DNA from: Fimbriimonadia bacterium
GTDB taxonomy: Bacteria; Armatimonadota; Fimbriimonadia; Fimbriimonadales; JABRVX01
DNA length: 64,000 bases
Direction of reading: 5' to 3'
Assembly: GCA_041483895.1 (NCBI GenBank)
Contig: JBGPGO010000015.1
Coordinates: forward strand, 29,028 to 93,027
The position numbers and the translations under genes were made by a program. The notes beneath the pieces are model-generated. The model saw only the letters and a program-made list of their open reading frames with translations, was not told where the DNA came from and did no database searches. This document shows positions 4,002 to 39,500 of this stretch, one piece after another (position 1 is the stretch's first letter; each line of letters begins with the position of its first letter).

Positions 4002-5324
4002 TTACCCAGGAACTTCACCCGATTGGCCGGCGCGCCATGTGATGCGAATGAGAGACCAGCGCCAAAACAGTGCCCCAGCCAACAATAAGACGGCCACGCC
4101 GGCAAGCCCGAGAGTCTTGCGTCGGTCCAGACTCGCCGCCTGCATGGCTTTTGCGGAGCGAAGGCTCTTGGCAATCTGCTCACGCGCCGGCTGAATCTTT
4201 CCAGAGATATCGTTGACGGACAGACCGTGCAGGATGACTCGAGCCTCGAGCAATGTCGTGTTGATGGCAGGCACGTCCGCCTGAATATCCGCCACATCCA
4301 TGCCTTCTGCTTCCGCCAATGAAGTCTGCGCAGCGGCAGCATCCATTTCTAGCTTCGCGACCGTCAGCATATTGTGAATCTGCTTGCCGACCGTTTCGCC
4401 CTTGTCCCCCTCGCTATGGCAATTACCACAGCCGTGTTCGCCGGAGTCGACCAACATGGCGTCCGTAGGCGGGGAAATCCCGTGGTTGCCATGGCAGTCG
4501 ATACATTTCGGACCTCCGGAATCCGCTATGGCCTGCCAATGTGGTCCCTGCTTTAGATACTTCTCTTGTTCCGGATGGCAGCTTCCGCAGACGTCCGCGA
4601 CCTCGGTCCGTCCAGGGGGTGTCGCTCCATGGGCGCTGTGGCAACTGGCACAATTCGGCGCCGCACGGTCGCCCTTTTGAAGCAGCGCAAGACCGTGGAC
4701 GCTCTTCGTGTAATCCGCCAGTTGCGTCGTCGGAATCTTGTATTGGGCCATTCGGGTCTTGTCCGCATGGCATTTGCCACAGGTCTTGGGTACGTTGCTG
4801 ATATACACGGCGGAATTTGGATCGTTTTTCGATAACGTCGCATGAGCGCCGTGGCAATCCACGCATGTGGCAACGTTCTGATCGCCTTGCGCCAGCTTCT
4901 TCCCGTGCACGCTCTGCTGGTACTGTTGGAACTGGCTGGTCGGAAGCCGGAAGGGACGCATGCGAACTACGTCCGAATGGCATTTCGCGCACAACTTAGG
5001 GATGTCGGCCTTTGCCGGTGCGCCGATATATCCTTTCGCGGTATCCATTGAGGCCTCGCCGTCGGGATTCATTGGGTCGCCGCCGTGGCAATCCTGACAT
5101 TCAACACCGTTTCGGGCGTGGATGCTCGTCAGCCATTCCTTTGAGGATTTCGAAACGTCTGGATCCTCGTCGTTTTGATGACACGTCACGCATTGGTTGG
5201 GTTTTGGACTGGCGAGACCAGGACGCCCAATCGCGATTCCAACCGCAACCAGGCCGGCAACGCCAAGAAGCCACGCGCTGATAATTCCAATTCCGGGTTT
5301 TCGAGTTGCATGTCTTTCTTTCAT
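4002..5324 (-). CDS. Membrane-anchored multiheme cytochrome c (9 CxxCH)
   Basis: CVTCH, CQDCH, CAKCH, CVDCH, CGKCH, CASCH, CGSCH, CIDCH, CGNCH; N- and C-terminal hydrophobic helices; ATGA overlap with the cytochrome b stop. Confidence 0.9.
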   Translation of the reverse strand: MKERHATRKPGIGIISAWLLGVAGLVAVGIAIGRPGLASPKPNQCVTCHQNDEDPDVSKSSKEWLTSIHARNGVECQDCHGGDPMNPDGEASMDTAKGYIGAPAKADIPKLCAKCHSDVVRMRPFRLPTSQFQQYQQSVHGKKLAQGDQNVATCVDCHGAHATLSKNDPNSAVYISNVPKTCGKCHADKTRMAQYKIPTTQLADYTKSVHGLALLQKGDRAAPNCASCHSAHGATPPGRTEVADVCGSCHPEQEKYLKQGPHWQAIADSGGPKCIDCHGNHGISPPTDAMLVDSGEHGCGNCHSEGDKGETVGKQIHNMLTVAKLEMDAAAAQTSLAEAEGMDVADIQADVPAINTTLLEARVILHGLSVNDISGKIQPAREQIAKSLRSAKAMQAASLDRRKTLGLAGVAVLLLAGALFWRWSLIRITWRAGQSGEVPG

Positions 5325-6466
5325 TTGGAGTGATGCCCCCATATCCCAAGGCCGATTACCGCGATGACCGCGACCGCGCCCGTCGTCAGCCATCCACGCC
5401 GCAAGTAAATCTGCCGCCCGGGCTTGCGATCGAGGAAGGGTAGGAAGAGAAACCCAAGAGCGGCGAGCCCTATCAGAAGTACTGATATCGTTTTACCCGT
5501 CCCGAAAAAGTCTCCAAGCACGGGAACGCTCTTTAATGAAGTCGTGCTTGGGAACAACTTGAGAAGCTGATACGACGGAAGAAAGTACCATTCGGGTTTG
5601 ATATGTTGCGGTGTGGTTGTGGGGTCGGCTTTGGCTTCCAAGTGAGGCGGCATGAAAGCAACAAGGAGGAACAGGACGCCAAGCACAAAGCAGAAACCGA
5701 TCCCCTCCCGCAGAACATGATTCGGGAAAAAGGGCTCGCGACCGGAAACATCGTCCTTGTCATGACTCCCTGCATCTTCGTCCGGCTCCAATGGAGATTC
5801 CGTCATACCGAGCTTTCGCTCGACCAGAAAGTGTACGCCAAGAAGAAGCACCGCTAGGAGCGGCAGTATCAACGTGTGCGCAGTGTAGAAACGGGCCAGG
5901 GTCTCTCCTGTCGTCGCTTCGCCGCCTCGCATCACGACGAGCAGCCAATGGCCAATGTACGGAACCGCATCCGTCAATTCCGTTCCCACGGTGGTCGCCC
6001 AGTAAGCAATCTGGTCCCAGGGTAAGAGGTATCCGGTAAAGCCAAAACCGAGGGCCGCGAACAGCAGCAAGGCGCCGGTGATCCAGTTCATTTCGCGAGG
6101 CCGCTTGTATGCTCCGTAGATGAACACGCGAACCATATGGGCGAACAGAACGATCAGCATGGCCGTAGCGCCCCAAGCGTGAAGACCCCGAATCAACCAT
6201 CCGTAGGAAGTCACATTCGTAACGTATCGTACACTCTCATAGGCGGTGCCGGGGCTCGGTCGGTAATACAGCGCAAGCAGAATGCCGGTCACAACCTGCA
6301 TCCCAAACAGGAGGAACGTGAGTCCGCCGAGGGTATGGGACCAATTGACGGATTTCGGCATCGGATACTTCAGAACCCCAGTTATGCCGAGCCGAGCATC
6401 AAACCAGCCGTAAATGCGCTGCGGCAAACGTGGTCGAGGCTCCAAGCTTGTTCCGTTTATCGCCAT
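5321..6466 (-). CDS. Cytochrome b of a Rieske/cytb complex (unsplit, b plus subunit-IV-like region)
   Basis: IRGLHAWGA..HMVRVF, GFTGYLLPWDQIAYW, RFYTAH...GVHF, HIKPEWYF (PEWY motif). Confidence 0.9.
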   Translation of the reverse strand: MAINGTSLEPRPRLPQRIYGWFDARLGITGVLKYPMPKSVNWSHTLGGLTFLLFGMQVVTGILLALYYRPSPGTAYESVRYVTNVTSYGWLIRGLHAWGATAMLIVLFAHMVRVFIYGAYKRPREMNWITGALLLFAALGFGFTGYLLPWDQIAYWATTVGTELTDAVPYIGHWLLVVMRGGEATTGETLARFYTAHTLILPLLAVLLLGVHFLVERKLGMTESPLEPDEDAGSHDKDDVSGREPFFPNHVLREGIGFCFVLGVLFLLVAFMPPHLEAKADPTTTPQHIKPEWYFLPSYQLLKLFPSTTSLKSVPVLGDFFGTGKTISVLLIGLAALGFLFLPFLDRKPGRQIYLRRGWLTTGAVAVIAVIGLGIWGHHSK

Positions 6467-6468
6467 TT

Positions 6469-6927
6469 CTAGCCTTTCAAGTAGATTTTGCCGCCCTTCA
6501 CGATTGTGGCAGCGGCAACGAGCGGTGACGGAGCAGGACCGGAGATGACATTCCCATTCGCATCGAACTGCGCTCCATGGCAAGGGCATTTAAAATAGCG
6601 AGAGCCTTCGATCCACTCAACGATGCAGCCGGCATGGGTGCACTTTGCATTAAATGACTTGAACCCGTCATCTACGTGCAGCACCCAATACGTCACTCCG
6701 TCGGCGAAGAATTTGGTGCCCTTTCCGATGGCCAGGTTCGCGACGGGACCGACCTCAATCTCATCGCCGGCGCCTTGGACCCCTCGGCGAGGAGGATAAA
6801 TGAAACGAACGAAAGCGTTGACGACACCGGCGCCAAGAACGACGAGCGCGCCGAGCAAGGAGATGTTTGCAAGAGCTTCACGCCTCCCGATTGTTTTTGA
6901 GGCCTTTTGGCCACTACCATCATCCAT
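6469..6927 (-). CDS. Rieske [2Fe-2S] protein with Tat-like signal
   Basis: GRREAL twin-arginine; CTHAGC and CPCHGAQF motifs; GGAGG upstream of ATG 6927. Confidence 0.92.
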   Translation of the reverse strand: MDDGSGQKASKTIGRREALANISLLGALVVLGAGVVNAFVRFIYPPRRGVQGAGDEIEVGPVANLAIGKGTKFFADGVTYWVLHVDDGFKSFNAKCTHAGCIVEWIEGSRYFKCPCHGAQFDANGNVISGPAPSPLVAAATIVKGGKIYLKG

Positions 6928-7327
6928 TACCACTGTACATCCTCCCATTCACCCGTTTTGCGCGAAGCCACTCATGAGCCGCCCCGACTTCAAACTCGTA
7001 GTCGGGGCCCGGTTGACCGTGACTCGGACCGTTTCCTGAATTCGCAGGTTCGATTGGATGTCCTTCCGGCACACGCCATTTGCCTGGCTGCTGGGTTCAA
7101 AAAACGGCCCATTTTGAGAAGACCATTACAGGCTTGCCGGAATCCTATCACAATCAGTTAGCCCTCCGCTGTCGCGAAAAAAAAGGACAGACGGAGAGCG
7201 AATTGTTACCGGACTGTACTTCAAAGCGGTTCTGGCTCAGACTTTGAGAAGACCTGTGCCCACCGACCAAGAATCCCACTCACCAGCGAATCGGAGGCGC
7301 TGAAGGCGGCGCGGGGTCAATCAGCCT

Positions 7328-8398
7328 TCACTTGCCCTTCGTCGGCAGCTCGCGTTGGTCGGCGTCGTGTTCGATATCATTCAGAATGGACGTAAGGTCT
7401 GCTTTGTGTTCCGGATCGGACGCATGATCAATCAAGTATCGTATTGCGGCAGTGTGCGTCAGCTTCAATGAGGTGGCAGGATCAGCCTTCACATCCGGCT
7501 GTACTCCCACGCCTTCCCAATTGGTGTGCGAATACGGGTTCACCGCCCGGCCACTGGGGATAAAGCATGCGAAGTGGTCCCCCAATCGCACCATGCCACC
7601 GGGATTCGCCCCACCCCAAGTCGGCTCCCCGATGATCGTTCCGCGCTTGAGCTGCTGAAAATTGTACGCGCACTCCTCCGCGCCGGACCCGGTCCGCTTG
7701 CTTGTTAGAACATAGACGGGCAGGTCGGGAAATCGCGGTCCATCCACTTTCGCAAGCGTCCAAAATTCCGTCTTCGTAATCTTATCTTTGTTGCGGAACT
7801 CGATCGTGTTCAGAAGTACCGGTTTGGCGCCAAAGAAGTGGCTGCAGAACAGTTTCACACCTTCCGGATCACCGCCACCATTGGTCCGCAGATCGATGAT
7901 CATGGCGTCCGCGTTCGCGAGAAACTCCATGGCCGCAACGACCGGCCGAGCCATGTCTTGCGGCGGGGCGAATCCATTGAACTTGATATATCCGACATTT
8001 CCACGCAATCGCTCGATCCGTTCGAAATTCGCATTCACAAATCTGGTCTCATCCTGATATCGCTTGAGCTCGTCTTTGGACGGCTCCCTCGCACTTCTTC
8101 GCTCCGGCAGCTTTTGCTCACTGTACCGGAATCGAAGATGCGCATCCGTCACCTGTTCCTTGAGAATCTCATTGACCCGCATGGCAAACTTCACCGGATC
8201 GTTGATGCTCGCGCATTCATCGGCCTTGATCCAGTCCTCCATCTTTGACTCGATCTTCTTCGCGGCGTCCATGTCGATATACAGATCGTTCATCTGATGA
8301 ATCATCTCATGGATCGTATCGGTCTTAACCTGTTGGGTCAGCTGGAAGGGCGCGGCCTGTTGTAGCAGCAAGGCTCCCAACAAAACGATGATATTCAT
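7328..8398 (-). CDS. S41-family peptidase (IRBP-like), secreted
   Basis: GNVGYIKF, IIDLRTNGGG, TGSGAEE, IIGEPTWGG, WEGVGVQPD. Confidence 0.88.
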   Translation of the reverse strand: MNIIVLLGALLLQQAAPFQLTQQVKTDTIHEMIHQMNDLYIDMDAAKKIESKMEDWIKADECASINDPVKFAMRVNEILKEQVTDAHLRFRYSEQKLPERRSAREPSKDELKRYQDETRFVNANFERIERLRGNVGYIKFNGFAPPQDMARPVVAAMEFLANADAMIIDLRTNGGGDPEGVKLFCSHFFGAKPVLLNTIEFRNKDKITKTEFWTLAKVDGPRFPDLPVYVLTSKRTGSGAEECAYNFQQLKRGTIIGEPTWGGANPGGMVRLGDHFACFIPSGRAVNPYSHTNWEGVGVQPDVKADPATSLKLTHTAAIRYLIDHASDPEHKADLTSILNDIEHDADQRELPTKGK

Positions 8399-30174: not shown

Positions 30175-30194
30175 GACTTAGGATACAATGATTG

Positions 30195-30479
30195 ATGATG
30201 GAAATCAAAGTTTCGTACGATATCGAGCAGATCATAGCGGAAAAGGTGAACTCCGGTGAGTTTGAAACTCCGGAACAGGTTGTAGAGCGGGCGGTGCGGT
30301 TGCTTCATGAGCGGGACCGGGAAATGAAGAAAGAGCTTGAAGCACTCCTGCGGGAAATCCAAAAGGGCGTTGATGACATTGAATCCGGACACGGAATCGA
30401 ACTAACGGACGAGGTCTTTGAAGAAATCGTCCAAGAGGCGCGTGCGGAGTTGGTAGCCGAAAACCGTGAGTCAGCATAG
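30195..30479 (+). CDS. ParD-like antitoxin (RHH)
   Basis: KVNSGEFETPEQVVERAVRLL..LLREIQKGVDD; directly upstream of a ParE-like gene. Confidence 0.8.
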   Translation: MMEIKVSYDIEQIIAEKVNSGEFETPEQVVERAVRLLHERDREMKKELEALLREIQKGVDDIESGHGIELTDEVFEEIVQEARAELVAENRESA

Positions 30480-30482
30480 GTT

Positions 30483-30791
30483 GTGGTCGCGAAAAAACTG
30501 ATCATCAGCCGTGATGCTCGGCGAGATTTGCTAGAGATTTACAAGTATCTTGAGATTAAGAGTGGAAATCCTTCGTCCGCATTTCGGGCGCTCCGGGCGA
30601 TCTATCGGGAATTGCAGCGTGTGGGCCGTTCGCCGGGTGTTGGCCATATCCGAGAAGATTTGACGAAGAAGCCTTGGAGGTTTTGGAGCAAATTCAGTTA
30701 TCTGATTGCGTACGAAGAGCAGGAAGCGAGCGTAACTGTCTTTCGCGTCCTTCACGCGGCGCGTGACCTACGCCGGTGGCTCGAGGGTTAA
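30483..30791 (+). CDS. ParE/RelE-family toxin
   Basis: ISRDARRDLLEIYKYL, PGVGHIREDL, YLIAY, FRVLHAARDL. Confidence 0.85.
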   Translation: MVAKKLIISRDARRDLLEIYKYLEIKSGNPSSAFRALRAIYRELQRVGRSPGVGHIREDLTKKPWRFWSKFSYLIAYEEQEASVTVFRVLHAARDLRRWLEG

Positions 30792-33080: not shown

Positions 33081-33103
33081 CCTTCACAGTCGCACTGTGA
33101 AGG
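33081..33103. repeat. Short palindromic repeat (copy 2)
   Basis: CCTTCACAGTCGCACTGTGAAGG. Confidence 0.8.
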
Positions 33104-33109
33104 CATTCC

Positions 33110-33880
33110 CTACCCCAACGGCTCATCCGAAACGATCAAGAAGTCGTACTTCGTACGAAGCATATCGGCCTCGCCGTCGAGTACACGTTTCACTGCCCAA
33201 CCGGTAACGAAGTTCAGCGCCCCATTCTTGTCAATCGCCGGGCCCCACTCGTGCCCGACCCATTTCAGGCCCTTGTCCCGAATAGCTATCTCGCCGATCA
33301 GCGCGCCCATTCCGGCAATCAAGAAGTCACGCATGCCCGAAGGCTCCTTCTTGATCCGCTTGGCCATACCGTCCAAAGCATCGATGGAGATGGGCCGATA
33401 ATCGACCAGTACACCATATCGATCCTTGGCATATTCGATGAACAGCTCGGCCTGGAATGCCATCCAGTCTGGGAGTGGGGCGCCGGGATTGGTGATGGTG
33501 GAATAATATTGTAACTGAAGGCACTCCTCCATCCCGCCATGCAGCCGGGTCGCCGCTGAGGTGATAGGTTCGAGAGAAGCGGAACCTCGTCCCTCTTCCG
33601 ATCGAACTTCGTGCTCGCCGACCCAGCCCCAGCCGTGGGTGTGCACATAAATCTCGCCATGAATCTGCCCAAGCGTGCCGATCATGGCGTGTCTCGGATC
33701 GTCTGGTAATTCGCCCCCCGTTCCCAAGACATCGTCGATCTTCTTAATAGACGCAGGACTCAGGTCCAACGGGACCTTGTACTGCTCCTTTGCGTAGGCG
33801 ATGTTGAACAGCACCGGGTCCTCCGGCATCTTCGCACCCTGCCCATTGCCTCCAAACAACCGCTGCAACTTGTCCCACAT
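33110..33880 (-). CDS. Hypothetical protein with an internally duplicated domain
   Basis: IAYAKEQYKVPLDLSPASIKKIDD and IEYAKDRYGVLVDYRPISIDALDG, each followed by G...GE..V/I.....W.GxH. Confidence 0.7.
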   Translation of the reverse strand: MWDKLQRLFGGNGQGAKMPEDPVLFNIAYAKEQYKVPLDLSPASIKKIDDVLGTGGELPDDPRHAMIGTLGQIHGEIYVHTHGWGWVGEHEVRSEEGRGSASLEPITSAATRLHGGMEECLQLQYYSTITNPGAPLPDWMAFQAELFIEYAKDRYGVLVDYRPISIDALDGMAKRIKKEPSGMRDFLIAGMGALIGEIAIRDKGLKWVGHEWGPAIDKNGALNFVTGWAVKRVLDGEADMLRTKYDFLIVSDEPLG

Positions 33881-33910: not shown

Positions 33911-33931
33911 TTCACAGTCGCACTGTGAAGG
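33911..33931. repeat. Short palindromic repeat (copy 3)
   Basis: TTCACAGTCGCACTGTGAAGG. Confidence 0.8.
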
Positions 33932-33940
33932 GCGATCGCG

Positions 33941-34190
33941 CTATCTTTTCGCGCGACGGAGGGCGGTGCGGAGGGCGCGGATTTCGTCCCGGAAGGCGCG
34001 GGATTGCTCACCGCGGATGTCTAGGTTCTCCAATACCTCCTCGCAAGCGTCCCGCAGATCGCCTGCTGCCGAATAACCTCGCCAACCTCTCCGTGGCCTC
34101 GACGCTCCCCTGGTCCACCACCTCGCATATCCCCGGGATGACAAACGTTCCATTCGCCAACTTCTCGGCCGCCGGCCAACTCGACGCAAG
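33941..34190 (-). pseudogene. Frameshifted remnant of a small phage-like gene
   Basis: ...EATERLARLF in one frame continues as AAGDLRDACEEVLE... in another; resembles the phage-type ARLIAAAPDLLEA motif. Confidence 0.35.
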
Positions 34191-34328
34191 AAGAAAGATA
34201 TATGTTTGCTTGAACGCATATCTCATTTCTGCGATCAAATTCAAAGGTGGATTTTGTGAGCTATCCTGCCACCAATTTAGAACCACTTGTTAACTCTTTT
34301 TTCGATATAGAGTAAAAAACACGTAAGT

Positions 34329-34360
34329 ATACCAGTACAACAATCGAATAGTACTGGTAT
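34329..34360. promoter_or_regulatory. Perfect 10-bp inverted repeat, candidate operator
   Basis: ATACCAGTAC-N12-GTACTGGTAT in the AT-rich region upstream of the GHKL gene. Confidence 0.55.
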
Positions 34361-34570
34361 TATTCTGAGAAGCCCATTTCTAGGGCAAACTGAAGAGAGG
34401 AAACCCCGGCGCTGGGCGCCAGGGCTCCTCAGGTTTTGAAAGAACAACTCATTATACAGCCTGAGAGCTCGTCCAGTGCCGGGTAAGCAATAAAAATCAT
34501 GTTAGAGACGAAACAAGAAAACAACACAGAAGTTATCCGGTCGGGTCAGGTGGGAAGGAATAGGGACGAC

Positions 34571-36700
34571 ATGACAACAGGCAGGATTGCAGCACCAGTA
34601 GGTTCGATTTGGGCGTACCCGCGAAAGAGCGCCTTTCGAAAATTAGCGGATCAATTCCAATTGAGAACTGGGATTACAGAATTGGTCGATAACGTCGTGG
34701 ACAATTTCCATCGGTGCAGCCAGTTCGGCAATCATTCGCCCTCAGAGCTGCGAATTGATATTCGCATCTCGCCAGAGCGGGTCGAAATATTCGACAACTC
34801 AGGTGGCGTGCAGCCAGAAGAGCTTGGGAACCTTGTGACGCTGGGCGCGGCAAGCGAAACGCCGAACCGCATTGGAGTTTGGAGTATGGGCTTTAAGATG
34901 GCCACGCTCGGAATCGGCTGGACCACAGAGGTCACTTCGACTCCATACAACGGCGCCGACTACTATATCGACGTGCCAGATTCGAAAACGAAGCGGGGGA
35001 TTCCGTCAGTTCGGATCGCTCTCAACCGGACTTGGTGGTTGGATGAGAAGGACTGGGAAGTACCCATCGGCCTGCCTTCTGACCCACCTTCGCGCGGCGT
35101 AACGAGGATTGAAATCACTGAACTGCGGGAAGACTTGGATCCAGTAACTATTGACGCCCTAGTGGAGGAAGTTACCAGTGATCTCGGAAGCTACTTTGGC
35201 GACATCGCTGCAGCGCAGGCTACTCCCTTTCGGATATTTGTGAATGATATTGAGGTGAAGTTCACAGAGCGCCTTTCTGGTGCAGCCATCCGCGGGACGT
35301 TTGCTTCCGGTTCCGAATGGGGTCCAGGACGACATGTGTTTAGCTTCGTAAAGCGCGGTGATGATGGCCGTTCGCGGACTCTGGATATGGAGGTTATTGC
35401 AGGCATTCAGCCGACTGCGACGGCAGAAAACCACGGCGCATTTCTATTCGGAGATCCGGGAGCGGGTCCGAGATATTTCGTCCGGCTTGACGACCTTCGG
35501 AGGCACGGATTTACTGATCGCGTCACCTCCCAGGAGTTTCGCCGGGTAAGGCTACTGGTGACTTTCAAAGGTGACGCCGATTTGATACCTTGGACGAATC
35601 CAATCAAGAATGGGTATCGGGAAGACCATCCATTGAGAAGGCAGGTTCAAGACGCATTGCGGCAGGTGATTGCACCGCTGGAAGACCTTTGCCGAGAGCA
35701 CTACGAATTCGATACGCTCCCATTCTCTTCAACCTGGGACGATCTCAGCCTCGTCGATCGGGTAAGCCGGATCGTCAGGCCGCTAGCTCTAAGTGAAGAT
35801 GACGCGAACGACCCAGATTTGAACCAAGGGTTGATTGACGTCATCGCACGCAATTGGATGTCCGACGGCGATTGGCAATCACCATTGTGGGATCACCAAG
35901 TTGACAAGTTGCCGCCAACCAAACGGCCTTTCTGGGATGGAGATTCTGCGAATGAAGCGAAGCTCAAACGGGCCAATCGCAACAAGATTCTCCGAAGGAA
36001 CTCGGGCCTCAATCAATACAGGTTGCTTTTAGCCTGGTTCAATGGCGACGATTTGCTTCCCGTCGAAAAAGAACTGATCTCCGGCCAAATGCAACCATGG
36101 TCGAATCTGGGTCAAATGGAAGAAGAAAGGCAGGGTGGGGACATAGCTGCCTCCACTTCCCAAGGAGCAAGACCAAGGGAGGAGCTTGCAGAACCTGCCC
36201 CAACGCAACCTACTGAAATGCAACAGTCGGTCATTCAGGTGTGCGCGCCCATGCCCGAGAAGCTCGTTTATGAGGTCGAACAACTGACTAGTTCAGTAAA
36301 CAGAGCAGAGGCAGTGCGCGTTGCGTTGGCGGCGTTCGTGCTTTGGCACAGGGAGCGGGCTGGAAACAGCCAGACGCCGGTCGAGTTGCCGCAGGATCCC
36401 CTCAGAACCCGCAGGGGAAGGCCGCGAAAGTCTCTGGACGAATTCGACCAGCCGTCTCATACACCTGGATCGCCCTTGGCGGCGCAAAATGACATCAGCC
36501 CGGAGGAGATAGGGGCGAACTTGCAACTATTAACTCCGCGTGAGCGCGAGGTGCTGAAGTTGCGCATGGGGATCAACGACCGTCGAAAACGAACGTTGAA
36601 GGAAGTCGGGTACGAACTAAAAATAACCCCCGAGCGCGTCCGCCAAATTGAGCTCCGCGCGTTGAGAAATCTGCGCGCCCGTTTGACGCCGGAGAACTGA
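34571..36700 (+). CDS. GHKL/MORC-type ATPase fused to RHH-like, AT-hook and sigma70 region-4 HTH domains
   Basis: ELVDNVVD, IFDNSGG, IGVWSMGFK, GVTRIEI (GHKL boxes); VIQVCAPMPEKLVYEVEQL..NRAEAVRVAL (RHH-like); RRGRPRK; LTPREREVLKLRMG...TLKEVG..LKITPERVRQIELRALRNLR (sigma region 4). Alternative start 34499. Confidence 0.8.
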   Translation: MTTGRIAAPVGSIWAYPRKSAFRKLADQFQLRTGITELVDNVVDNFHRCSQFGNHSPSELRIDIRISPERVEIFDNSGGVQPEELGNLVTLGAASETPNRIGVWSMGFKMATLGIGWTTEVTSTPYNGADYYIDVPDSKTKRGIPSVRIALNRTWWLDEKDWEVPIGLPSDPPSRGVTRIEITELREDLDPVTIDALVEEVTSDLGSYFGDIAAAQATPFRIFVNDIEVKFTERLSGAAIRGTFASGSEWGPGRHVFSFVKRGDDGRSRTLDMEVIAGIQPTATAENHGAFLFGDPGAGPRYFVRLDDLRRHGFTDRVTSQEFRRVRLLVTFKGDADLIPWTNPIKNGYREDHPLRRQVQDALRQVIAPLEDLCREHYEFDTLPFSSTWDDLSLVDRVSRIVRPLALSEDDANDPDLNQGLIDVIARNWMSDGDWQSPLWDHQVDKLPPTKRPFWDGDSANEAKLKRANRNKILRRNSGLNQYRLLLAWFNGDDLLPVEKELISGQMQPWSNLGQMEEERQGGDIAASTSQGARPREELAEPAPTQPTEMQQSVIQVCAPMPEKLVYEVEQLTSSVNRAEAVRVALAAFVLWHRERAGNSQTPVELPQDPLRTRRGRPRKSLDEFDQPSHTPGSPLAAQNDISPEEIGANLQLLTPREREVLKLRMGINDRRKRTLKEVGYELKITPERVRQIELRALRNLRARLTPEN

Positions 36701-36779
36701 TAAGCGAATATCAATAGGTTCGTTATTAACGTCGCGGCAACAGGATGCAATGACTTGTTGCCGCGACCTAACGTCCCAG

Positions 36780-37391
36780 CTATACCTCGACACCAATCAA
36801 CACTAACGGCACGGCTGGCACACCGCGGCCCTGTCGGACGACGTTGTAAAGCTCGCCCTCATAGTAGGCAATGCCGGAGCTCATTTGCTTCGAGAGAGAC
36901 TTCATTGGAACCAATTCGATTCCCACATCGACCTGGTCGCCAACGTAGAACGCGAGGTGCTTAACGAAAATGTCATACGCCACGAACGAGTACTTGCCGA
37001 ATTGGACTTCTAGGGCGACGCGATCTCTTACGAAATCAGTTTGGTTATAGCTAAAGATCGGTTCGTAGCCAGCCGCCTCAATTTCGGCCTTTTGCTCCTC
37101 AGCGCTCATAGTCATAGTCTTTCTGATCAGCCTTTGGTCTCTTGTAACCCAATAGTTAACACGGCTTTCGGACCATCCGCGCACTCTCAGCAATTCGGCA
37201 AATGCCTTATTGAGGTCGATAGGCGAAAACAGTTTACGGCCGGGCATTGTCTTTTCTTTGGAAATTTTCGTCCGACACTTGTCTGCGTCAACGAGGTCGA
37301 TGACATCTCTGATCTCTTGATAAAGGGCCGGTTTATGGACCATGAGAAATTCGACCCCGTTGAGGTGGGAATAGACCTCGGCGATCTTCAA
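36780..37391 (-). CDS. Type II restriction endonuclease, BglII/BstYI family
   Basis: 203 aa; YSHLNG, NQTDFVRDRVALEVQFGKYSFVAYD (D..EVQ catalytic motif), RQGRGVPAVPLVLIG; closely resembles BstYI as I recall it. Confidence 0.88.
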   Translation of the reverse strand: MKIAEVYSHLNGVEFLMVHKPALYQEIRDVIDLVDADKCRTKISKEKTMPGRKLFSPIDLNKAFAELLRVRGWSESRVNYWVTRDQRLIRKTMTMSAEEQKAEIEAAGYEPIFSYNQTDFVRDRVALEVQFGKYSFVAYDIFVKHLAFYVGDQVDVGIELVPMKSLSKQMSSGIAYYEGELYNVVRQGRGVPAVPLVLIGVEV

Positions 37392-38338
37392 TCCGCAGCC
37401 TCTGGGCTAAGTCCAAATGCGGTTTGGCCATTCGTCTCCCACGGGTTTCTCGCCAGTTTGCTATTCGAGCCAGTAGGATCGTAAACCGGTCTACCCATTG
37501 GACGAGTCCGAAGGTTTCCTGCCAACTCCAAGTTGATTCGCTCCCTAGCGATCTCTATGTACTTAGAATGGATCTCACTTCCGGCCCCCAGACGTCCGTG
37601 CCGCACTGCGGCAATTATGCTCGTACCTGTCCCAAGGAACGGATCGTATACCCAATCGTCCTCATTCGTCATAGAGAGGACAAGCCGCTCGATAAGCTCC
37701 ACCGGAAATTGGCACGGATGCACCGTTTTCTCAACATGATTGTTCTTGACGTTCGGGATTACCCAAAGGTCGCCAGGGTTCTTACCGAGCGGGTTTCCGG
37801 AGTATTCACCTGCACGGGGTCCCTTAAAATGCTTCTTGCCGGGGTACTTCTGGGGTACACGGACGCCATCCAAATTGAACACGTAATTGTCCGACTTCGT
37901 GAACCAGATTATCGTTTCATACCTACCGGAAAACCTTTTACTGCAATGAAGCCCATGTTCGAAGTGCCAGATGATTCGATTACGCATCTTCAGTCCAAGA
38001 TCGGCGAAAATCGGATAGAGGATGGTGTCGAGTGGAATGATTTGTCTACCGTCAACGTAGTTGCCCACTTGCCAGCAGATGCTTCCAGTTGATTTCAACG
38101 CGCGGACGCACTCGCGAATCACAGCCGCCTGTTGCTCGACGTACTGATCCAATTTGAGCCTCTTCTCGTATTCCTTGCCGAGGTTGTAAGGCGGTGAGGT
38201 CACGACGAGTTGCAACGTCCCGTTTGGCACGGTCTTAAGAAACTGGAGACAGTCGCCATCGTTCACAATGATTCGTGCGTCCAGCGCAAACCTTGTCGCA
38301 ATTCGAGTCCTTTTGCTTCCAATTAGGGCCATTGTCAT
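37388..38338 (-). CDS. Cognate DNA methyltransferase, N6/N4 beta class (probably m4C)
   Basis: VTSPPYN catalytic motif before HPCQFP and DPFLGTGTS; 4-nt overlap with the REase start; alternative start 38398. Confidence 0.9.
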   Translation of the reverse strand: MTMALIGSKRTRIATRFALDARIIVNDGDCLQFLKTVPNGTLQLVVTSPPYNLGKEYEKRLKLDQYVEQQAAVIRECVRALKSTGSICWQVGNYVDGRQIIPLDTILYPIFADLGLKMRNRIIWHFEHGLHCSKRFSGRYETIIWFTKSDNYVFNLDGVRVPQKYPGKKHFKGPRAGEYSGNPLGKNPGDLWVIPNVKNNHVEKTVHPCQFPVELIERLVLSMTNEDDWVYDPFLGTGTSIIAAVRHGRLGAGSEIHSKYIEIARERINLELAGNLRTRPMGRPVYDPTGSNSKLARNPWETNGQTAFGLSPEAAD

Positions 38339-38494
38339 GTGCAATTTTACTCCCTTCACGCATCTTCCTGTGTGGGGTGTGGAAAAGTCCTGTGACACAT
38401 GACTCGCGCCGAAGTTCGTTTTGTGACAAAAAAGTCGTCGCCGCAGCCGTTGGGGTTGGTTCTCGGAGATTGGAATTGCCGGTCGGGGCTGCGG

Positions 38495-39319
38495 CTACGG
38501 GTTTAGCGTCGCCAGCATCTCGTCAGCGGGGAGGCGTTCCTGGCAGGATATCCGGCGGGGGGCGGAGAGGATTTGGATGTCGAAGCCGAGGGAGGCGTAG
38601 AGGTCGAGGATGCGTTCGGTGGCCTGGTTGGACGCGACGACCGGGCCGGGGTGGCGGGAGAGCCAATGGGCCAGGCGGACCTGGTCGTCCCAGGTGAAGT
38701 CGTCCTTTGAGTACTTGGTGAACTCCACATCGTAGGGAGGGTCGGCATAGATCAAGTCGTTCGGCGACGGGGATAGGTCTTCGAAGTCGCGGCACAGGAG
38801 TTCATAGTCCTGAAGAACCTCTTTGTACTCTCGGAAATCGCGCGTGTAGGTGATTGTCTTGTATTGCCCGAACGGCACATTGAAATGGCCACTGTTGTTG
38901 AAGCGGCAGAGGCCGTTGTAGCCCGTGCGGTTGAGGTAATAGAACAGAGTCGCGGCCTCTTTTGTCGCCGCCTTGCCGGCCGCGATCAGCTCGTTGAATC
39001 GCTCGCGATTTTCGTAATAGGTCTCGGAATCGTTAAGGAGCTCCACTGATGGACGGTGGCCGTTCGAACTTGCCGCCGTGGGCATGCGCAGCCCGCGCTG
39101 CAACCAGGTGTAGAAGTTGATGAGATGGGCGTTGCGGTCGGCCAGCAGCGCCCGTTCCGGCTGCAAACCGAGTGCCACCGCCATCCCCCCAACAAATGGC
39201 TCAACTAGCCGACGGTGTCTGTGGGGTTCATACAGTTCGCGCAAGATCGGAACAAGCCACCGCTTTCCGCCCGCCCATTTTAGGGGGGGATCGAGGGTTG
39301 GTTGGGTTAGGGTGGGCAT
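38495..39319 (-). CDS. Dam-like (D12-class) N6-adenine DNA methyltransferase
   Basis: PPLKWAGGKRWL, EPFVGG, YYLNRTGYNGLCRFN..G.FNVPFG, YADPPY. Confidence 0.9.
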   Translation of the reverse strand: MPTLTQPTLDPPLKWAGGKRWLVPILRELYEPHRHRRLVEPFVGGMAVALGLQPERALLADRNAHLINFYTWLQRGLRMPTAASSNGHRPSVELLNDSETYYENRERFNELIAAGKAATKEAATLFYYLNRTGYNGLCRFNNSGHFNVPFGQYKTITYTRDFREYKEVLQDYELLCRDFEDLSPSPNDLIYADPPYDVEFTKYSKDDFTWDDQVRLAHWLSRHPGPVVASNQATERILDLYASLGFDIQILSAPRRISCQERLPADEMLATLNP

Positions 39320-39350: not shown

Positions 39351-39444
39351 GTGTTTGGGTCTAGGTTGGTTGAAGTTGGGGAGTTATCGGTACCAGTGGA
39401 CCCAAACACATCCAAAAGGGACGGCAGGGACTTGAGGGACCTCA
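39351..39444. repeat. About 59-bp element with terminal inverted repeats GTGTTTGGGTC..GACCCAAACAC, plus an adjacent 9-bp tandem repeat
   Basis: Related copies at 63199-63259 and 63359-63417; GGGACGGCA GGGACTTGA GGGACCTCA at 39418-39444. Confidence 0.65.
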
Positions 39445-39500
39445 GCCAATTGCGCACGATCGGCATGCGGGGCTGCGGCTACGGGTGTACAATTTAGAAA

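Follow-up and report, generated by a model that had tools for sequence, protein, structure and literature searches.

A MORC-like ATPase carries a sigma region 4 tail apparently captured from its host lineage's own sigma gene

The window analysed here is a 64,000-nt stretch of contig JBGPGO010000015.1 (assembly GCA_041483895.1, positions 29,028 to 93,027) from an uncultured Fimbriimonadia bacterium, and its subject is one gene, P0001, encoding a MORC-like GHKL-S5 ATPase followed by a ribbon-helix-helix (RHH) domain, an AT-hook and a sigma region 4 tail. The open reading frame (ORF) runs from 34499 to 36700 (+) without an internal stop and encodes 733 amino acids (aa) counted from its first ATG; a start at ATG 34571, which gives 709 aa, is likelier because homologues start in register there. 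Residue numbers are those of the 733-aa form throughout. A first-pass annotation, made from the letters alone, had described an ORF of about 710 aa with GHKL boxes, and all four of its motifs are present: ELVDN (E61), DNSGG, IGVWSMGFK and GVTRI. It had also described a well-formed sigma-70 region 4 and no region 2; Pfam agrees on both counts, with a strong Sigma70_r4 match at residues 675-727 (E 5e-13) and no match in P0001 to a sigma region 2 family. HATPase_c_3 matches residues 59-148 weakly (E 0.003, below the cut-off).

The fusion of a MORC-like ATPase to sigma region 4 is a real gene. The P0001 stretch was found in 22 listed sediment runs, of which one may be the source sample and all may stem from one campaign; at least half of the sampled words were present in six of them, and no RNA holder was among the runs listed as carrying the stretch. 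Two Logan contigs, each from another run, cross the fusion with zero differences (X2 record 11 spans 35156-36750 and X4 record 29 spans 35987-36687), and in the four runs compared the gene contains no joint or indel and its frame is intact. These unchanged bridging contigs rule out an assembly chimera, a possibility raised at first pass.

The GHKL (Bergerat) ATPase domain (34616-35188, +) retains E61, D64, N65, G126, G131 and K133, with Ser in place of G129, and the S5-fold transducer (35261-35698, +) has a MORC-like G-h-x-h-h-G...R-x-F motif (G313 to R325) and an invariant K370. P0001 keeps 33 of 41 conserved columns (counted as such when at least 85% of 40 family members agree), including the six ATPase-domain residues just named, R325 and K370; the last, found in 40 of 40 members, is presumably the lysine finger of the S5 domain. 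Motif II, D-N-S-G-G, and motif III, with G129S, are both atypical. The MORC S5 signature has been defined as GhXhhpXXRhl (PMC2292703). The S5 motif of P0001 is a variant of it with a 4-residue insert; that of the relative P0010, GVYMYGMDRLF, has G at the polar position and F at the aliphatic position. Pfam Morc6_S5 has no match in P0001-P0010.

An AlphaFold model of residues 25-619 built on an 87-row alignment reached a predicted local distance difference test (pLDDT) of 83.7; the single-sequence model, at 36, was uninformative. The best structural match of the core model is MORC3 (Z 15.4, root-mean-square deviation 3.5, 288 aligned residues, 16-375), in line with the GHKL/MORC fold first proposed for the N-terminus, in a near-tie with SMCHD1 (15.3) and GRP94 (15.2). 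Foldseek returned Hsp90/TRAP1 rows only, which establishes GHKL but no subfamily. When the family profile was compared with solved structures, MORC2/3/4 made up the nine best rows (E 3e-10 to 3e-7), and Topo VI-B ranked after them (E 5e-6). The ESM Atlas matches were generic HATPase_c_3 clusters, at 0.88, with nothing for the C-terminal part of P0001. By the model and fold matches, the middle of the protein, earlier left unassigned, comprises the S5 transducer followed by a helical segment and by a linker (about 534-575) that is disordered. Judged by sequence and model, the core is a GHKL+S5 ATPase with its catalytic residues kept, and it would work like a prokaryotic MORC/paraMORC.

A search with residues 31-524 against 1.84 billion representatives, with no length limit, found 156 proteins at E <=0.001 (150 of them listed), the six best being 29-32% identical over nearly the whole core. 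In a FastTree tree P0001 branches as sister of a close clade of 15 members (support 0.98), and by sequence it belongs to a rare, unnamed GHKL-S5-RHH family. Close-clade proteins (512-655 aa) terminate in a strand-helix-helix that aligns with residues 576-618 of P0001, and the RHH domain (36224-36352, +) is the ancestral C-terminus of the family. An RHH-like segment had been noted at first pass, and it is supported by the family profile (E 6e-4), by a weak VapB_antitoxin match (E 0.06) and, in a homologue, by a weak PSK_trans_fac match; both of these Pfam domains have the RHH fold. Two copies of residues 414-619 were modelled as a dimer with its interface at 576-618, strand paired on strand in an antiparallel, RHH-type arrangement. 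The model scored 0.49 (0.00 for the best of three controls), above a mark that was passed by 20 of 30 solved homodimers and by 1 of 23 single chains; contact agreement between runs was at least 52% and pLDDT at least 41, and the pass, obtained with a custom alignment, may mirror likeness to solved RHH dimers. The C-terminal RHH of the ATPase is thus predicted to dimerise.

It had been supposed that sigma region 4 replaces the nuclease effector as a promoter- and RNA polymerase (RNAP)-binding head. We reject this arrangement, as the close relatives end in RHH without a nuclease and the sigma region is appended behind the RHH. No restriction endonuclease-fold nuclease or TIR was matched by Pfam in P0001-P0010, and no nuclease, TIR, ExxxH or HxH tail is seen in P0001. 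A sister clade has a nucleotidyltransferase appended behind the RHH position, as seen in 8 of the 51 family proteins scanned. The more distant GHKL relatives P0083, P0082, P0040, P0060 and P0108 have tails of the Shedu SduA_C, NOV_C, HEPN_RiboL-PSP and HhH types.

The family is thinly spread. The close core was not found in the 60 relatives searched (one distant match, G051), in 400 genomes of the phylum (distant GHKLs in 16) or in 300 further genomes of the phylum of a Nanoarchaeota host. Neither phages nor viral contigs yielded a full-length family member, though the viral contigs gave 13 N-terminal-only GHKL matches; plasmids gave two distant matches. No second sigma region 4 fusion was found among the 150 of 156 representative matches listed or in a word-based search covering the P0001 core form, so that within these searches no other genome or protein carries the fusion. 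G062 (L092) encodes a GHKL ATPase of 714 aa from a different family, whose gene overlaps the next one downstream; the product of the latter has a weak sigma4-like helix-turn-helix (HTH; E 3e-5; coordinates 4884-5537 and 5515-7656, both on the - strand).

The origin of the tail can be traced. Residues 645-727 are 60% identical over 83 aa to a 367-aa sigma factor encoded on contig C24 of the host genome (G000:C24:24493-25596), and the match is confined to these residues. Among 151 genomes of the class, a tally that takes in the unpublished G036, the best sigma match is the host's own C24 gene, and in a 33-row tree the tail joins it at 98/93. Numbering sigma residues as in E. coli (ungapped match at 550-600, extended by offset), E557, I565, N566 and Y578 are common to the tail and the host gene and unlike the consensus of 32 rows. 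DNA identity between tail and sigma gene lies on one diagonal, from 36431 to about 36670. Further upstream, a 12-nt in-frame exact match to the start of region 3.2 of the host sigma gene (36372-36383, +) is the probable 5' edge of the graft; a match as long was reached by 5 of 3000 codon shuffles and by 0 of 3000 random genome windows. This suggests region 3.2 as the starting point of the graft, with the AT-hook inside an insertion of net 30 nt when compared with the host sigma gene. The hook motif itself, RRGRPRK (36410-36430, +), is where it was first reported. It is judged by sequence pattern, a 23-aa piece having no Pfam match; among 2525 long reading frames of the host, that of P0001 alone contains RGRP[RK]K, and a similar motif is carried by the distant homologue P0072. 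Gapped local alignment of the AT-hook DNA with the sigma gene gave no link, 297 of 500 shuffles being as good. These comparisons identify the tail as a graft derived from an alternative sigma gene of the host lineage itself. The donor on C24 appears to be an alternative sigma; a second sigma, on C18 (409 aa), looks more primary.

The two parts of the graft have evolved differently. Ancestral codons were taken as those at which the host gene equals G001 or G002. In the sigma region 4 core, with 39 of 59 codons polarised, synonymous divergence (dS) is 0.97 and nonsynonymous divergence (dN) 0.18, a dN/dS of 0.18 (Fisher p 7e-5), and region 4.2 alone gives 0.10. In the adjacent region 3.2 linker (36431-36499, +; 20 of 24 codons), dS is 0.69 and dN 0.63, a dN/dS of 0.92 (p 0.77). 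Neutral simulations over per-site divergences of 0.3-1.0 retained as many identities as observed (43 of 59) in <=0.8% of runs, and acquired a stop codon in 84-99.8%. As read from these substitutions, the sigma4 tail has been under purifying selection since the graft and the adjacent linker has drifted and decayed.

Region 4 of the tail (36500-36679, +) retains an intact HTH and most of the DNA-side residues of RpoD/SigA-type region 4, keeping R554, R562, T572, L573, T583, E585, R586, R588 and Q589, but it has no regions 1-3 and several contacts are altered. P711 stands in place of R584 (an Arg in all 32 sigma rows), P668 in place of R541 (Arg in 29 of 32), M690 in place of F563 and K701 in place of E574; the chain stops at the equivalent of 606, so that L607 and the H5 helix are gone. 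G568R and E574K together add positive charge. R584 contacts the -31 base (PMC2613000), R541C and L607P are substitutions that disrupt flap binding (bioRxiv 2022.01.24.477500), and H5 binds the flap tip and MotA (PMC2988021). Because both positions of the flap-disrupting substitutions are lost, one as Pro and one by truncation, the first-pass idea of an RNAP-binding head is not supported. Canonical reading of a -35 element, likewise assumed at first, is not supported either, given R584P.

Homologue neighbourhoods place the family near DNA-modifying genes. Fourteen loci reduce to nine after removal of the duplicates L043, L036 and one of L040/L041 and of the distant L046 and L047. Methyltransferase, nuclease or SNF2 helicase genes accompany six of the nine (methylase genes four of the nine), so the expectation that homologues lie near defence genes holds as a raw count, taken without a background rate. 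In L035 the ATPase is preceded by an AlwI-family restriction endonuclease (REase), two D12 methylases, AIPR and Sir2-like genes and followed by a RusA-like gene; L037 combines a RusA-like gene with N6_N4 methylase, Dam and DpnII genes. ATPase, SNF2 and HNH genes stand in that order in L034 (Nanoarchaeota) and L042, close to a methylase; L044 carries both SNF2 and HNH, while L045 includes the beginning of an SNF2 gene; the L038 contig is 1.4 kb. In L039 and L041 a nucleotidyltransferase fusion is followed by a 170-180 aa gene without a Pfam match, which may be HEPN-like by analogy with MNT-HEPN pairs. The REases at L035, L037 and the P0001 locus all belong to families with GATC-containing sites (n=3). 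Immediately upstream of the ATPase, each of the three close-clade loci has an HTH gene of 90-92 aa. This small gene has no match in the host genome at E <0.01 and was found in 0 of 401 genomes, in a search without a positive control. Across the family (P0002-P0029, P0160-P0168; L034-L045) three partner sets can be discerned: the small HTH gene upstream with RusA-like downstream; SNF2-HNH with two small paralogous genes; and an in-frame MNT-type nucleotidyltransferase followed by the 170-180 aa gene.

At the P0001 locus itself, the ATPase gene converges on three genes of the opposite strand, all identified as first annotated: a BstYI-like type II REase (36780-37391, -; E 9e-93 to BstYI 1sdo), its cognate N6_N4 methyltransferase with an SPPY motif (37388-38398, -; likely start 38338), of the N4-C class, and a Dam-like D12 adenine methyltransferase (38495-39319, -). 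The view that ATPase and restriction-modification (RM) genes form a module is not supported, since the genes are convergent and a BstYI-like pair (71% and 68%) is present in G001, a genome of the same family as the host in which the ATPase has no match. In the host all four RGATCY hexamers are rarer than expected (0.63-0.81), and two non-target palindromes likewise. A promoter scan found four sites where 2.7 were expected, and no terminator came from the promoter/terminator scan; a 14-bp hairpin (36730-36767, -25.3 kcal/mol) without a T-run lies between the convergent genes. Upstream of the ATPase, a perfect 10-bp inverted repeat with a 12-nt spacer (34329-34360) is a candidate operator; arms of at least 10 arose in 3 of 1000 shuffles and the repeat is unique in the genome, and neither its sequence nor a shared operator was seen upstream of the homologues.

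Among known systems, the closest likeness is to prokaryotic MORC/paraMORC proteins (Iyer, Abhiman & Aravind 2008, PMC2292703), with which the family has in common GHKL plus S5, a variant of the S5 motif and a patchy spread over bacteria and archaea. Their second operon type (SNF2, HNH and methylase) is seen in the archaeal branch of the family, and the P0001 locus resembles a minority with methylase/REase and no helicase (PMC2292703). The available text of that paper names neither an RHH nor a grafted sigma4/AT-hook tail, though an HTH figures among the architectures in its Fig. 2 legend. ParaMORC3/4 end in a restriction endonuclease-fold nuclease or TIR, whereas the close clade of P0001 ends in RHH. 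MutL, MORC2-3 and Tiamat-type clamps follow a similar plan, a constitutive C-terminal dimer with an ATP-closed N-terminal gate (bioRxiv 10.64898/2026.09.30.754977), with modular C-terminal swapping; in P0001 the dimer domain is RHH, and there is no nuclease or histone reader. TmtA (Tiamat) models match 1 of 31 family members, at E 0.003 only. The anti-phage system Mza (mzaABCDE) likewise brings together a GHKL ATPase, MzaB, and a protein of the sigma-70 family, MzaA (PMC9523054). MzaA, however, is a separate protein of about 700 aa that P0001 matches only over region 4 (52 bits, cut-off 800), and MzaB is matched by 3 of 31 family members (best E 0.002) but not by P0001; with no Mza match among the other proteins of the window that were scanned, and no MzaA-E operon at the locus, identity with Mza is rejected. 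The claim that no described system has this architecture stands within the literature covered: we found no described GHKL+RHH or GHKL+sigma4 fusion, subscription journals being mostly outside that scope and Fig. 2 and the supplement of PMC2292703 being places that could bear on it. The terms searched in the available parts of PMC8011034 and PMC12839542 gave no such architecture.

Our preferred reading is a tentative one, held a little short of even: that the tail is a re-purposed, RNAP-independent DNA grip on an ATP-gated, MORC-like clamp. The ATPase would have been acquired horizontally as such a clamp, the RHH holding the dimer and ATP closing the heads so that DNA is trapped or looped, by analogy with GHKL biology. 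What the sequence shows is that the 3' end of the host's alternative sigma gene was joined in frame behind the RHH, that the AT-hook arose within the former region 3.2, and that selection preserved the fold of sigma4 as its contacts with the flap and the -31 base were shed. As a grip, the tail could combine an HTH of relaxed or altered -35-like preference with an AT-rich minor-groove hook, and may substitute for the small upstream HTH gene that the closest relatives have and the host genome lacks. It might let the partner-less clamp load onto promoter-like, AT-rich DNA, for instance foreign DNA entering the cell, which the clamp would silence or compact alongside the RM system. ATP cycling, DNA binding, target and defence role are all parts of this proposal that we infer. 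Several observations weigh against it. The fusion is a singleton, the sigma4 profile matching 1 of 169 proteins, P0001 itself, and the word-based core search returning one member on one contig, again P0001. The core sits on a long branch (1.64) and departs from the family at 8 of the 41 conserved columns, one of these changes being G129S in the ATP lid. In the sigma tree the query branch is long and the bootstrap unsettled, and the dN/dS values come from few codons with dS inflated by drift in GC content at third codon positions (GC3; 0.92 to 0.69). The ATPase has no operon partner and the RM pair runs without it elsewhere, and three of the nine homologue loci, on short contigs, have no RM, nuclease or helicase gene.

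Other explanations fit parts of the same evidence. Three DNA-binding modules with no effector gene, and a unique inverted repeat upstream, would suit a domesticated regulator, one no longer directed at foreign DNA, whose RHH binds that repeat while sigma4 and the AT-hook make contacts close by, and which thereby tunes or represses its own promoter, the RM genes or genes of the host; the RGATCY avoidance suggests that an RGATCY system has been resident for long. Yet the half-site is not repeated upstream of the REase and methyltransferase (a single 6-nt match lies at 39391), the related genome has the RM pair without the ATPase gene, and an ATPase head is superfluous for simple repression; we consider this unlikely, though worth keeping in view. 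The pattern of losses also invites the idea of a disarmed decoy, in which sigma4 baits AsiA-like phage sigma4 binders, its contacts removed to spare host transcription. The bait is copied from the host's own sigma, its fold is under purifying selection that is strongest in region 4.2, and the residues gone are those a decoy should shed; AsiA binds regions 4.1/4.2 (PMC2988021). The same paper reports that F563Y reduces AsiA binding, however, and here F563 is Met, and H5, the MotA target, is missing. No toxic effector is fused or co-oriented, the donor seems to be an alternative sigma where C18 is more primary-like, and the added positive charge and AT-hook suit DNA binding better. Such bait is rather improbable, and just as improbable is its sequel, in which the captured phage protein is sequestered or switches the ATPase clamp.

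The tail could instead be a passenger, joined in frame by accident to an orphan gene that is drifting, and conserved just to avoid misfolding. The gene is a singleton with a fast-evolving core and no partner genes, and 13 of 44 conserved sigma columns are off consensus, three of these in common with the host gene. But a stop codon anywhere behind the RHH would bring back the ancestral form, and 84-99.8% of neutral runs acquired a stop; the linker drifted where the domain did not, and the frame is intact in all four runs compared. We give this account only a small chance. Least tenable is a head that docks on the beta-flap and -35 element to recruit or block RNAP: the strong Pfam match and the retained E585, R588 and Q589 speak for it, but with Pro at 541 and 584 and no L607/H5 it is very improbable.

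The locus offers a traceable domain capture, with the donor gene still in the genome and the graft edges visible. The neutral linker serves as an internal control, the captured domain having been kept by selection while RNAP and -35 contacts were shed. The fusion would be a clean test of nuclease-free action by a prokaryotic MORC-like ATPase, which has been proposed before, and it exposes an unnamed GHKL-S5-RHH family with swappable partners. Its weight is limited in that this is one gene from one uncultured lineage whose roles are deduced from sequence and model. That MORC-like defence ATPases repeatedly capture and disarm host sigma4, as bait for phage proteins or as a reader aiming an ATP-driven silencing clamp at phage promoters, is a speculative generalisation that we think unlikely to hold. 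Were it true, the fusion would represent either an integrated decoy in bacteria or a transcriptional silencer that does without a nuclease and resembles eukaryotic MORC in function, caught soon after birth.

The surrounding DNA shows further features. A 22-nt direct repeat (38484-38505 and 39468-39489) flanks the Dam-like gene, and its core also occurs on C1 and C5; together with a host-like GC3 of 0.77 (0.60-0.62 in the REase and methyltransferase), this suggests that the Dam-like gene is a separate insertion. Divergent from the ATPase across the inverted repeat, 33941-34286 (-) holds two overlapping, out-of-frame 92-aa ORFs, possibly one frameshifted gene, with no Pfam match or paralogue and letter-identical in the four runs. 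A palindrome like repetitive extragenic palindromes (REP-like), present at 74 loci in the genome, occurs at 33083-33103 and 33911-33931, where two copies flank a 256-aa ORF (33110-33880, -) without Pfam match or paralogue; another copy follows the donor sigma gene on C24. A ParD/ParE-type toxin-antitoxin pair lies at 30192-30791 (+), with paralogues on C1, C10 and C26. The most avoided palindromic hexamer of the host genome is CAGCTG (0.31 of expected), which points to another RM system.

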